Shown here piece after piece: positions 32,032-39,034 of a DNA stretch of 64,000 bases (positions within the stretch are counted from its first letter, which is position 1; every line of letters starts with the position of its first letter). The position numbers and the translations under genes were made by a program. Origin of the DNA: Candidatus Gastranaerophilales bacterium (GTDB lineage: Bacteria > Cyanobacteriota > Vampirovibrionia > Gastranaerophilales > Gastranaerophilaceae); contig CANQJT010000006.1 in assembly GCA_947624325.1 (NCBI GenBank), positions 34,147 to 98,146 on the forward strand. The letters run 5' to 3'. The notes below the pieces were generated by a model. The model was given only the letters and a program-made list of their open reading frames with translations, did no database searches and was not told the DNA's origin.

Positions 32032-33804
32032 ATGAACAAAATAATAATATCTCAAATTAACACTATCGCAGGGGACATATCATTTAATAAAGAAAAGATT
32101 CTTGAATGCATAAAAAAGGCAAAGAATCAAAAAGCCGATTTAATAATTTTTCCCGAGCTTGCTTTAATAGGATATCCGTTCGGCGATATATTTATAAGGC
32201 ATAAATCAATTATTGAAAGAGAACTGAAAGCTTTAAATGATATTGCCAAAAATACCGAAAACATTACAGCTCTGGTTGGTTTTGCGGAGCCTACAAAAGA
32301 TGCCAACAAGAAACCTTTTTATAATTCTGTTGCAGTAATACAAAACGGAAAAATTATTGATACGGTAAGAAAAAGATTACTGCCAAACTATTCGGAATTT
32401 AATGACTACAGATATTTTGAGCCCTCTGACAAAGTATCAAAAATTTTGGAATTAAACGGTGAAAAATTTGGGATTTTGGTTTGTGAAGATAGTTTTAATG
32501 ATAAATCATTTTTTAAAGATAAATGTATATATAAAATTGATCCTGTTAAAGAATTAATGGAACAAAAGCCTCAAACATTAATAAATTGTTCATGTTCCCC
32601 CTCAAGATGCGGTAAAGAATATATTAAAAACGGATTATTTTCATCTATCGCAAAAAAATACAAAGTAAATTATATATATGTAAATCAAGCAGGATATGCG
32701 GATAATCTTTGTTTTGACGGAGCATCAAGAATATATAATACAAATGGTGAATTAACATTAAGAGCAAAATCTTTTGAAGAAGATTTTGTAATAACAGACA
32801 ATTTCCAAGGAGAAATAAATCCGCTGCCGGAAGGCTCGGATAAAAAATTTGAATTGATTGATTTGAAATCTGATTATGAAAAGGATTTAGACAGGACATA
32901 TAAAAGTATAATTTTCGGTATCAGAGAATATTTTAGAAAGAACGGATTTAAAAAAGCGGTTTTAGGTCTGTCGGGAGGGCTGGATTCTTCTATCTGTGCA
33001 GTACTTCTTTCTGATGCACTCGGCAAAGAAAATGTATGGGGAATATCTATGCCAAGCAGAATAACCTCTAAAGAAAGCAAAAATGATGCAAAACTATTAG
33101 CGGAAAATCTCGGAATAAACTTTTTTGAAATTCCTTTAGCTGATGCTATTGACCCTTTAAAATCAATGTTAAATACTGCTTTTACAAATATAGAAACCGA
33201 AAAGTTTGAAAAATCAACAACAATAGAGAACTTACAGGCACGATTAAGAGCGACTCTTTTATGGAGTATATCAAATGAGCATAAACAAATGCTCCCTATT
33301 GCAACAAGTGATAAATCAGAGGCTTATATAGGTTATGCCACGGTTAACGGAGATATGTCAGGCGGATTTGCACCTATTGCGGATGTAACTAAAACAAAAC
33401 TATTTGCTCTCGGAGATTTTTTAAATAAAAATCGAGCACACAAAAATGCAATTCCGCAGGCAATTTTAGAAAAGCCTCCGGGAGCTGAATTAAAAATTAA
33501 TCCTAAAACAGGTAAAACAGTTTGTGCCGAAGAAGAAAACATGCCTTATGAATTCTTGGACGAAATTATTTGGAATGTTGAAACAAAAGGTTATGGTTTT
33601 GACGAATTAATAAAGCATGAATTTTATTATGAAAAAAATAATAATCTTTCAATTGAACAAAAAAAAGAATGGATTAATAAATTTTATTGGAAATCCAAGT
33701 GTGCTGTCTACAAATGGCATATTATTCCGCCATCGGTTGTTGTTGATGTAAAATCAATTAACTCTGTCGAATACCGCCAGCCGATTATTTCAAAAGTTAA
33801 TTAA
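32032..33804 (+). CDS. nadE: glutamine-dependent NAD+ synthetase
   Basis: N-terminal CN-hydrolase domain (FPELALIGYP...VCED) and C-terminal NAD synthetase domain (LGLSGGLDSS). Confidence 0.9.
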   Translation: MNKIIISQINTIAGDISFNKEKILECIKKAKNQKADLIIFPELALIGYPFGDIFIRHKSIIERELKALNDIAKNTENITALVGFAEPTKDANKKPFYNSVAVIQNGKIIDTVRKRLLPNYSEFNDYRYFEPSDKVSKILELNGEKFGILVCEDSFNDKSFFKDKCIYKIDPVKELMEQKPQTLINCSCSPSRCGKEYIKNGLFSSIAKKYKVNYIYVNQAGYADNLCFDGASRIYNTNGELTLRAKSFEEDFVITDNFQGEINPLPEGSDKKFELIDLKSDYEKDLDRTYKSIIFGIREYFRKNGFKKAVLGLSGGLDSSICAVLLSDALGKENVWGISMPSRITSKESKNDAKLLAENLGINFFEIPLADAIDPLKSMLNTAFTNIETEKFEKSTTIENLQARLRATLLWSISNEHKQMLPIATSDKSEAYIGYATVNGDMSGGFAPIADVTKTKLFALGDFLNKNRAHKNAIPQAILEKPPGAELKINPKTGKTVCAEEENMPYEFLDEIIWNVETKGYGFDELIKHEFYYEKNNNLSIEQKKEWINKFYWKSKCAVYKWHIIPPSVVVDVKSINSVEYRQPIISKVN

Positions 33805-35324
33805 TACTATTTAATTGCAAAGCATAATATAAGCCATAATGAAATTCTTTAAATGTAATATTTTTCTCTTTTAATTTTTGTTTAAAAAAATCTTTTGCAT
33901 ATATTTTTTCTTTATCATCATAGCTGTTTTCAAATGTTATCCAATATTTATAATTTAATGATTGGTTATTAAAAAAATCCGTAAAACTCTTTTCCCATTG
34001 TTCTTTGGAATTAATGTAAATTTCAACTTCCCAATCCACAGTTTTATTAAATTTGTACATTTTTTTATAAAAATTAAATGAATCATAATATATATAGTTA
34101 AATAAAAATTTATCATTATCAGAACAGTTATTAAAAATATCAACGGTTACATTTTTAATATTATTTCTTTCGTCAACAGACATATTTATAATTTTATAAT
34201 AATTGAATTTTTCATCAAATTTTATTTCAAAAATACAAAATAAAATTATAAAAAGTAAAAAGACTTTAAGTACATTAAAAATTATCAAAGGTATTTTTTT
34301 TATAAATACAGGATTATCAGCAGATTTAATAATAAACATTATAAATAAAGGAATTAAATATAATATTATTCTTCCTGTTAAAGGATATATTTTCAAATAT
34401 GAAGCAGCTGATATAACAGCTATAAGAATTATATAAAATATTGTATTTCTTTTTTCAATAATTAAATATAATAATCCTAATAAAATTAACAAAAATGTTA
34501 ATTTAATATAATAAGGCTGTAATACCCCCCCCCGGTTGTATCACAAATAAATAAAAATCTTTAAACGTTGCATATAAAGAAGTTGCCGATGGTTTAATAA
34601 AACCGGTTTGCCAATCATTTTCCAATATTTCTGTTACTCTTAAATCTTTATATACTAAATATAGATATAGACTTGAAGTGAAACTTCCTAAAAATATCAT
34701 TACACCCGGAAATGTTATTTTCTTTTCTTCAATAAATTTTGCAATCATCATAGAAGGAATTATTAATATTGAAGGAAATGAAAATAATATAATTATATTT
34801 GAAATTATCAGATATACTATTACCTTAGCCCATATTGATTTAAATGGCTGTATATTTTTTAAACTCATATATTTATAACTAAATAGTAATAATATACAAA
34901 TTAAAACATCCGAAGAATAAGGTTTAAATTCTGCAGAATAATAAATGAGTACAGGATTAACAGCAAATAAAAATAAACCTGTTAATAAAACCAACTTACT
35001 TTTTATATAATCATTTAATAAAAAATAAAAAGCAAATAATGATAGAATTCCGGATAATAAAGGAATTAATCTTAAACTATATTCATTATAGCCGAAGATT
35101 TTTTGCACTATTAAAACTAATGAACAAAACAAAGGCGGAGCTTTTTGATTATCAACTAAGACATGAAAAAAATTTAAAAATTTTTCATCAATAAAACTTT
35201 GACTTAAAACTATTTCATCTATCCAAAAGGGTATTTTAAATAAATATATTTTAAGTCTTAAAAAAATTCCAAGAACTACAATAAGAATAACAAATATATA
35301 AAAAATAATATTAAATTTTTTCAT
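33797..35324 (-). pseudogene. GT-C-like paralog 3, split into ORFs 34503..35324 and 33797..34492 by a frameshift at a G9 tract
   Basis: The N-terminal half carries PFWIDEIVLSQSFIDEK...AEFKPYSSD and the C-terminal half LKIYPLTGRIILYLIPLF, matching paralogs 1 and 2. Removing one G from the tract fuses both halves into about 508 aa with no stop. Confidence 0.8.
34525..34533 (-). repeat. homopolymer C9 (G9 on the coding strand)
   Basis: Counted directly: aataCCCCCCCCCggttg. Confidence 0.95.
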
Positions 35325-37775: not shown

Positions 37776-37932
37776 AATTTTTTTTCCTTTTTATCTGGCT
37801 ATAATATTTTATATCAAACATACAAAAATTTAAATTTAATAATTGTGTTTTTTACACTTTATAAAAATAAAACTTAATAATTTTAATCAGATTTACTTCA
37901 CAATAGAATTAAGTTTATTATAAAATATAAAC

Positions 37933-38958
37933 ATGAAAGTTTGCTGGGAATTATTTAATTCAATAGAAATGGGTACCGACGGCAGTGTATATGTATGCTG
38001 TGAACAGAGAGTTTCTAAATTTTCGTTAGGTAACATATTTAGAGACAAGTTTGAAGATATATGGAACTGTGAGAAATTAATTAAAATGCGTGAAGCTGCC
38101 CTCCAAGGTAAGTATCCCTATTGTAATCATGGGATATGCGAAAAACTGTCACGGGGGGGGGGAAGGAAAAGAAATGAGTTATTTACCAACGTTCTGCCGT
38201 CTTATAAACCTGTAATGTCTTCTTTCCCTACGCATGTAGCATTACCCATTGCTCGTGATTGCAACGCAAAATGTATTTTTTGCAGAGATAAAATTATTAC
38301 TTCCGAAAAGGAACAAATTAAATCATTCAACAACAAGTTTAATAATATCTATCTGCCTATTATGAAAAATGTCAATATTTTTACAGTAAATGATATGGGC
38401 GATGCGTTTGGTTCAAAATTTTCAAGACAAGTTATAGAGAATACTATAAAAAGATATCCTCAAATAAAATTTAAGATAATGACAAATGGAATTTGCGCCA
38501 GTGAAAAATTTATAAAAAAACTTGATTTGGAAAACAGAATAATTGAATTAGCTATTTCCATTAATGCGACTACAGCTAAAACACATTATAAAATTTTTAG
38601 GGTTCGGGGATGGAAGCTATTATTAAAAAATCTTGAATATCTTTCGCAGTTAAACAAAATTGGGGAAATACCTTATTTACATTTTAAATTTGTTGTTTGC
38701 AGTAAAAATTGGAAAGAAATGGCGAAATTCGTAAAATTTGCTTCAAAATATGGTGCAAATGCAGATTTTTGGGAAGTTAGAAATTATTATGCAGTAAAAA
38801 ACAAATACGAAGATCTTGCAGTACATAATGAAACTCATAAGGATTTTGATGCTTTTGTAAAATTACTTGCAAATCCGATTTTTGATGAAAAGCATGTTAC
38901 TCTTTCACCTTTATTGATGAAATTAAGAAAGAAAGCTATTTCGGAAAAAGAAGCATAA
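37933..38958 (+). CDS. radical SAM protein with an N-terminal SPASM/twitch-like Cys motif
   Basis: CNAKCIFC (CxxxCxxC) at residues 110-117. Residues 4-69 carry CWELFNSIEMGTDGSVYVCC...GNIF..FEDIWNC, resembling the normally C-terminal SPASM motif CX9-15GX4C. A G10 tract lies between the two parts. Confidence 0.6.
   Translation: MKVCWELFNSIEMGTDGSVYVCCEQRVSKFSLGNIFRDKFEDIWNCEKLIKMREAALQGKYPYCNHGICEKLSRGGGRKRNELFTNVLPSYKPVMSSFPTHVALPIARDCNAKCIFCRDKIITSEKEQIKSFNNKFNNIYLPIMKNVNIFTVNDMGDAFGSKFSRQVIENTIKRYPQIKFKIMTNGICASEKFIKKLDLENRIIELAISINATTAKTHYKIFRVRGWKLLLKNLEYLSQLNKIGEIPYLHFKFVVCSKNWKEMAKFVKFASKYGANADFWEVRNYYAVKNKYEDLAVHNETHKDFDAFVKLLANPIFDEKHVTLSPLLMKLRKKAISEKEA
38153..38162 (+). repeat. homopolymer G10 inside the radical SAM ORF
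   Basis: Counted directly: tcacGGGGGGGGGGaagg, encoding S-R-G-G-G-R. Confidence 0.95.
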
Positions 38959-39006
38959 TCTACAAAAAGTCTTTGGCTAAAACATTTTAAAATTAAATAA
39001 AAAAAA

Positions 39007-39034
39007 GAACCGCTTCATTAGAAACGGTTCTTTT
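39007..39034. terminator. bidirectional terminator between the radical SAM gene and gap
   Basis: GAACCGCTTC-ATTA-GAAACGGTTC (one mismatch) flanked by A6 and T4. Confidence 0.7.

Follow-up and report, generated by a model that had tools for sequence, protein, structure and literature searches.

A poly-G tract within a radical SAM gene of an uncultured Gastranaerophilales bacterium is a likely phase-variation switch

The occurrence of ten consecutive guanines inside the open reading frame (ORF) of an enzyme, in a genome poor in guanine and cytosine, raises the question of whether such a run is a fixed piece of coding sequence or a switch that turns the gene on and off. The run in question (G10, positions 38153–38162) lies in a 64,000-nucleotide stretch of contig CANQJT010000006.1 (positions 34,147–98,146; assembly GCA_947624325.1) from a Candidatus Gastranaerophilales bacterium, referred to here as the window, and lies inside a gene for a radical S-adenosylmethionine (SAM) protein. 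The Gastranaerophilales inhabit the guts of humans and animals. They are related to cyanobacteria but are not photosynthetic and have not been cultured, and very little is known of their dealings with hosts and phages. A first-pass annotation of the window had drawn attention to the run and implied a phase-variation tract that is ON at present. The results described here indicate that it is very probably a slipped-strand contingency (phase-variable) locus, ON in this assembly.

The codons across the tract, TCA CGG GGG GGG GGA AGG, are read in frame as S-R-G-G-G-R (residues 73–78). Both the sequence and the ORF agree with the first-pass annotation in placing them after the N-terminal Cys-rich segment, here a SPASM/twitch domain, and before the C110-x3-C114-x2-C117 core. 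When the length of the run was varied in silico, the full-length protein was obtained from G7, G10, and G13. With G9 the product is 93 amino acids long and ends in SRGGEGKEMSYLPTFCRLINL, with G11 it has 81 amino acids ending in SRGGGKEKK, and with G8 it has 80 ending in SRGGKEKK; for G9 and G11, the earlier hand translations proved exact. All three products stop upstream of the CX3CX2C motif, and a change of one nucleotide does truncate the protein before the radical SAM cluster, as had been stated. The tract in the window assembly (G10) is in the ON state, and G8, G9, and G11 are OFF states.

Long G/C runs are far more numerous in this genome than expected. In the whole assembly (G000; 1.98 Mb in 20 contigs), the guanine-plus-cytosine (GC) content is 30.9%, compared with 30.7% in the window and the roughly 30% first estimated. 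Runs of six G or C occur 19 times and runs of seven not at all, followed by 4, 33, 20, and 5 runs of 8, 9, 10, and 11 nt, respectively. Extrapolation of the decay of shorter runs predicts about one run of length 7 and ∼0.07 runs of at least 8 nt, as opposed to the 62 runs of 8–11 nt observed. The scatter is not random, the lengths being bimodal and 43 of the 62 long runs having another within 5 kb (16 ± 4.5 under random placement, and never more than 34 in 5000 trials). About 50 of the runs are intragenic: ∼23 are in frame in the middle of a gene, ∼10 are found exactly where two frames on the same strand abut, so that a gene is split there, and ∼17 lie no more than a few codons from a gene end. 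The remaining 12 runs are intergenic, and seven of these adjoin a TGGTATAAT-type extended −10 box, six ending 9 nt and one 12 nt upstream of it, and precede genes for Kelch-repeat proteins. In the Pfam assignments of the 71 tract-linked ORFs, the prevailing classes are sugar-nucleotide dehydratases and epimerases (GDP_Man_Dehyd/Epimerase), PMT_2/GT-C transferases (PMT_2, four), thiamine pyrophosphate (TPP) enzymes, hexapeptide acetyltransferases (Hexapep, three), pyruvyl transferases (PS_pyruv_trans, two), GT2, GT92, prepilin-type proteins (N_methyl, three), Kelch proteins (four), and radical SAM proteins (Radical_SAM, three). The enrichment in envelope and modification genes that the first-pass annotation had raised is thus seen, in the form of surface-glycan, pilin, and modification genes. 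Together, the run lengths, the clustering, and the gene classes form the signature of a phasome.

The site is also occupied by a tract in the nearest species of the genome set, represented by a Candidatus Gastranaerophilales metagenome-assembled genome (MAG; G014, the sister species). The ortholog there is 80% identical in amino acid sequence and 89.7% in DNA and lies in the same permease-glyQ-radical SAM-gap order. It has G9 at the identical site, which is in frame (SRGGVEKND) owing to a 3′ flank shorter by 2 nt; the tract is therefore kept, in frame and at the same position, in a related genome, a point on which the initial proposal had depended. No tract is present in a more distant ortholog (G021, 57% identity) or in 13 others. 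Variant alleles were traced through short members of the protein clusters (90% identity) to which the two orthologs belong and then through the contigs encoding them; an exact-match scan of metagenome contigs with the 29-nt left flank gave no matches. In the window's species, G10 was found in five further samples (L042–L046, 99.3%–100% identical), G9 in one contig identical save for the tract (L040), and G8 in a contig from a strain with 20 single-nucleotide polymorphisms (SNPs) in 747 nt (L041, 97% identical). The ENA analyses that hold this species include ERZ27249386, ERZ27249389, and ERZ27249684 (G10) and ERZ27249129 and ERZ27249158 (G9, G8). In the sister species, the MAG and one contig (L055) have G9 and are ON, and contigs from three different samples (L047, L048, and L054) have G10 and are OFF. 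The products called from these sequences match the predicted truncations (P0021 with 93 amino acids, P0022, encoded on L041, and P0016 with 80 amino acids each, plus a downstream ORF of 289 amino acids), and in L040, L041, L047, L048, and L054 the tract is the sole indel. The phase-variable character implied at the outset is in this way supported by length variants in assemblies of two species.

The position of the tract within the protein is consistent with tolerance of length changes. The N-terminal SPASM/twitch match (PF13186) is clear, at 42.3 bits compared with a cut-off of 21.5 and an E-value of 9.5e-11, and an alignment of 16 homologs identifies C64 and C69 as further conserved cysteines and C110, C114, and C117 as invariant. 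The Radical_SAM match (PF04055, residues 105–269) is weak at 20.7 bits, under the cut-off of 29.5. A model of the protein was generated with AlphaFold2 from 16 homologs (mean predicted local distance difference test [pLDDT] score 88.8, predicted template-modeling score [pTM] 0.86), and in it the linker of residues 74–80 is the only segment with a pLDDT below 50. Residues at the tract position are found only in the window protein and its closest ortholog, and all the other aligned homologs have a four-residue gap there, which argues that the tract is an insertion into a permissive inter-domain loop.

These observations suggest how the locus would operate. The G10 run would act as a hypermutable homopolymer that gains or loses a G by slipped-strand mispairing in replication. 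Replication slippage is favored as the cause because the one- and two-base differences leave the flanks untouched; its reversibility and rate are inferred. A length of G10, or of G7 or G13, would give the full 341-amino-acid enzyme, and the disordered loop would tolerate extra glycines, such that all ON-state lengths could be functional. Any other length would shift the frame in the linker and stop translation after 80–94 residues, before the SAM-binding CX3CX2C motif, and the gene would be OFF. The most likely task of the N-twitch radical SAM protein is to tailor a surface-glycan sugar. Together with the switching of ∼60 other tracts, its stochastic ON/OFF switching would give the cells of one population differing surfaces, presumably to the benefit of the bacterium.

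Several observations weigh against this proposal. Every OFF allele is on a contig with 1.2–2.7x coverage, where Illumina homopolymer errors matter, and two of these contigs end or break near the tract, while the assemblies of the window's species with 7–8x coverage, five in all, have G10. MutS and MutL are present and intact (MutS_I, PF01624, and MutL_C, PF08676, in undisrupted frames of 884 and 599 amino acids in G000), so slippage rates would not be raised by a repair defect like that of Campylobacter. In addition, the gene stands alone between glyQ and gap in this genome, outside any glycan cluster. The coverage pattern would be expected of a fixed glycine-rich linker that does not switch, the G8, G9, and G10 variants then being errors of sequencing or assembly, and a contribution of sequencing error to single OFF cases is possible. 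In the sister species, however, three independent samples share the +1 length, G10, as opposed to two assemblies with G9, a distribution that is hard to explain by error. Moreover, the G8 contig represents a diverged strain and shows a difference of 2 nt, the tract is the sole indel in the variant contigs despite many A/T runs, and a fixed linker would account neither for the lack of runs of length 7 nor for the ∼10 genes that are split at tracts. On balance, such a linker is an unlikely explanation. Improbable, too, is a mutational hot spot with no adaptive value, in which an accessory gene drifts toward a pseudogene and the OFF alleles represent decay. The content of the glyQ-gap slot does vary, with five radical SAM genes in GCA_011262095.1 compared with one in the window, and members of the genus have 0 to 14 copies of the N-twitch family, some paralogs having in-frame stops. 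Nevertheless, the tract is pure in two species whose DNA has diverged by ∼10%, each reference being in frame by way of a different flank length; the OFF contigs have no secondary lesions, and the narrow band of 8–11 nt over 62 loci suggests that the tracts are maintained.

The tract may also be viewed at the level of RNA. Transcriptional slippage or ribosomal frameshifting could mix the products, in which case DNA length would be no strict switch; this is considered very improbable. Long homopolymers are generally known to cause slippage of RNA polymerase, and the TAA that ends the G9 frame shares 1 nt with the main-frame ATG of Met95 (38215–38217), just 5′ of the radical SAM core, which makes re-initiation conceivable. 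The best-documented cases of such slippage, however, involve A/T runs; the sister species lacks the TAATG overlap; and an RNA-level process may add leakiness but does not explain polymorphism in DNA. The same overlap allows for a three-state version of the switch. On the G9 contig of the window's species (L040), a second gene was called from the last base of the stop, and the G9 state could permit coupled re-initiation, giving the twitch domain and the complete core as two polypeptides split at the domain boundary, possibly with altered activity. The chance of this is small, because the sister species does not share the overlap. In such a three-state scheme, G10 would specify the fused twitch-core enzyme and G8 or G11 only a twitch fragment of 80–81 amino acids. 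A slipped-strand contingency locus remains the preferred reading of the tract.

What the switched enzyme does is suggested by its relatives. An exhaustive HMMER search gave 208 cluster representatives at E < 1e-30, and among them are homologs fused to GT2 and GT1 (P0053), GT1 (P0126), polysaccharide pyruvyl transferase (P0054), Sulfotransfer_2 (P0142), FkbM methyltransferase (P0104), and class I methyltransferase domains (P0023, P0032, P0098, and P0102). These fusions link the family to the synthesis or tailoring of polysaccharides. A Foldseek search with the AlphaFold2 model returned NifB, viperin-like enzymes (including those of Trichoderma, PDB 9DGW and 9DFW), DesII, BlsE, and MoaA at a probability of 1.0 and TM-scores of ∼0.45–0.49. 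The predicted fold is that of a generic radical SAM core, with several enzymes of sugars or nucleotide sugars among the best matches; DesII, BlsE, and viperin, which are among the nearest folds, act on nucleotide or nucleotide-sugar substrates. The gene probably encodes a glycan or nucleotide-sugar tailoring enzyme. Two other roles were considered. An anti-phage, viperin-like defense gene was rejected, as the window protein has no PADLOC match and radical SAM proteins of neighboring families give only weak pVip matches. A maturase of peptides made by the ribosome and modified after translation (RiPPs), as a SPASM domain might suggest, is disfavored, since no precursor-like small ORFs or peptide-processing genes were seen in the glyQ-gap island of GCA_011262095.1 (L052) and the fusion partners are glycan enzymes.

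The domain order sets the protein apart from classical SPASM/twitch enzymes, in which the domain is C-terminal, whereas it is N-terminal here. A profile search of PDB sequences matched BtrN with both halves in swapped order, the twitch region of BtrN corresponding to residues 17–81; viperins and NifB were matched as well. Like BtrN, DesII, and BlsE, radical SAM enzymes of sugars or nucleotide sugars, the protein has a CX3CX2C core, and BtrN also has a twitch domain with an auxiliary cluster. In BtrN this domain is C-terminal, a permuted order relative to the present protein, and identity to the three enzymes is only 11%–19%, with TM-scores in the range given above. The NCBIfam model NF033640 (N-terminal twitch, N_Twi_rSAM) has the same architecture and aligns with residues 3–293, but the score of 51.2 bits is below the curated threshold of 170, which indicates a related lineage and not a member.

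The closest parallels to the proposed switch are in Campylobacter jejuni, whose poly-G loci affect capsule, lipooligosaccharide (LOS), and flagellar glycosylation. The resemblance extends to a genome of ∼2 Mb with ∼31% GC, dozens of intragenic runs of 8–11 nt with bimodal lengths, clustering of the runs in glycan-modification genes, and ON/OFF switching by one base. C. jejuni lacks MutS/MutL mismatch repair. Here, in contrast, MutS and MutL are present in this genome and in 39 of 41 relatives, and the host is an uncultured member of the Gastranaerophilales; the absence of MutS1/MutL that goes with a Campylobacter/Helicobacter-type phasome is not seen. We know of no phase-variable gene of C. 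jejuni that encodes a radical SAM enzyme. Radical SAM genes do occur in capsule clusters of C. jejuni, though not as phase-variable genes (PMC8743553).

Repair-proficient species provide a second parallel. Neisseria meningitidis and Haemophilus influenzae retain mismatch repair and have intragenic poly-G/C switches (lgt genes, siaD, and pilC) together with promoter tracts (the porA and opc spacers). Mismatch repair is likewise kept here, and tracts are also found 9 nt upstream of −10 boxes. The phylum and the gene set are different, and rates and reversibility were measured in those species, whereas the present comparison is between assemblies. Among gut commensals, Bifidobacterium breve UCC2003 is said, in work attributed to Penno and colleagues in 2022, to have poly-G pilus switches at a few loci, with slippage seen by deep sequencing. 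The genes there are for pili, unlike the iron-sulfur enzyme considered here, and the present genome has ∼62 tracts. By analogy, the locus appears to function in the manner of poly-G contingency loci known from C. jejuni and Neisseria, in a bacterial group and an enzyme class for which the literature searched yielded no account of such a switch. Full-text searches of the searchable literature disclosed no paper that connects the Gastranaerophilales or Melainabacteria with phase variation or with contingency loci. There is a slim chance that the locus would represent the first case of a sugar-tailoring radical SAM enzyme under phase variation, in a repair-proficient phasome of ∼60 loci from uncultured gut Melainabacteria. 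If the proposal is correct, ∼60 poly-G/C switches would give stochastic surface diversification as in Campylobacter and Neisseria with mismatch repair kept. For annotation, genes of MAGs that are split or truncated at such tracts would then be switchable genes, not pseudogenes or assembly errors, and the locus would point to probable glycan tailoring by a large radical SAM family in which the twitch domain is permuted.

The number of tracts varies greatly among relatives. In a census of runs of G9 or longer, counted as overlapping matches, G000 has 88, and seven congeners (G003, G006, G008, G010, G014, G016, and G022) have 61–137 each. Other congeners are tract-poor, with none in G001, G007, and G023 and three in G021, and other families of the order have mostly 0–9 matches; some MAGs (G018, G024, and G025) have artefact-like long G runs at contig ends. 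Loss of mismatch repair was rejected as the source of tract richness, as MutS_I and MutL_C are found in tract-rich and tract-free congeners alike. The idea that more tracts compensate for few radical SAM paralogs was also rejected, the two counts having no visible relation.

Twenty loci with arrays of the N-twitch family were examined in congeners (L056–L075, from G001–G022). The sole family member there with a long run is in G008 (C41), a paralog 38%–43% identical to the window protein and split into two frames at an out-of-frame G8 on the coding strand. As this G8 sits in the same linker (RCFAI-GGG-NNQDFEKHYDIEYKPIM), the linker seems to have acquired or retained a tract in a distant paralog. 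Almost no gene of the arrays carries a poly-G tract. Up to ∼16 radical SAM genes are found per 20 kb (for example L058, G008:C18:2001–22000), and the 260 ORFs of the 20 loci include 85 of the N-twitch family and 99 of a second radical SAM family of ∼331 amino acids, with ApbA-like reductases and GDP-mannose 4,6-dehydratase encoded among them. It is unusual for radical SAM paralogs to be so numerous. The glyQ-gap slot of GCA_011262095.1 (JAAGKN010000278.1, 5600–13000) holds, besides its radical SAM genes, a repeat-rich ORF of 268 amino acids with no Pfam match and an ORF of 145 amino acids; the slot is a variable island.

Two more tract-bearing radical SAM genes (G9 or G10) are present in G000 outside the window (C13:5381–7499 and C15:16760–18191), which makes radical SAM enzymes repeated targets of tracts in this genome. 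Both encode the core motif CTLNCKHC and a Cys-rich C-terminal tail, and both adjoin tract-bearing hexapeptide acetyltransferase genes.

The seven intergenic tracts next to −10 boxes, also outside the window, share a module in which a G/C9–11 tract is followed by TAAAAGTGGTATAAT or TAAAAATGGTATAAT, one copy having three additional bases after the tract. They are located at C4:741–749, C6:101655–101665, C6:103780–103788, C6:114792–114800, C6:118262–118271, C6:120497–120506, and C6:121425–121433 of G000. The Kelch-repeat proteins encoded downstream are secreted and have ∼385–412 amino acids. These tracts look like phase-variation switches of promoter strength. A fixed −35 box was rejected for them, since the spacing of candidate −35 hexamers varies and only the 9-nt distance to TGGTATAAT is constant. 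Two of the units, C6:116992–118271 and C6:119227–120506, have the same sequence in a comparison of 130 nt around the tract.

Table 1. Coordinates of the features of the radical SAM locus and the companion tract in the window
Feature	Position	Strand	Remarks
Companion tract, C9 on the forward strand, G9 on the coding strand	34525–34533	−	3.6 kb from G10
Promoter-like site, TTCACA, 18-nt spacer, TAAAAT	37897–37926	+	Ends 6 nt before ATG; consensus match only
Radical SAM gene, 341 amino acids	37933–38958	+	N-terminal SPASM/twitch, then radical SAM core
SPASM/twitch-like Fe-S domain, residues 4–65	37942–38127	+	PF13186
Inter-domain linker RGGGRKR, residues 74–80	38152–38172	+	Coded by tract and 3′ flank
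G10 homopolymer	38153–38162	+	Flanked by C and A; putative slippage-prone switch
TGA stop, +1 frame	38175–38177	+	Used by G8, G11, and G14; products of 80–82 amino acids
TAATG	38213–38217	+	TAA (38213–38215) ends the −1 frame of the G9 allele
CNAKCIFC, CX3CX2C motif (C110, C114, C117)	38260–38283	+	Binds SAM-cleaving [4Fe-4S] cluster
Hairpin, T runs on both sides	39003–39034	.	Between radical SAM gene (+) and gap (−)

The G10 run and the companion tract are the only two G/C runs of at least 6 nt in the 64-kb window (Table 1). G10 had been described as the second long G tract within 4 kb of the companion; the distance holds, although the companion reads as cytosines on the forward strand and as G only on its coding strand. 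The two halves (34503–35324 and 33797–34492, reverse strand) of a split PMT_2/GT-C-like gene meet at the companion tract. This gene (33797–35324) is absent from the sister species, where nadE directly abuts the amino-acid permease gene, and it is a species-specific insertion or loss. Upstream of the radical SAM gene, the promoter-like site is not significant alone, as five such sites occur in the region compared with 7.9 expected. The hairpin that separates the gene from gap is probably a bidirectional terminator.

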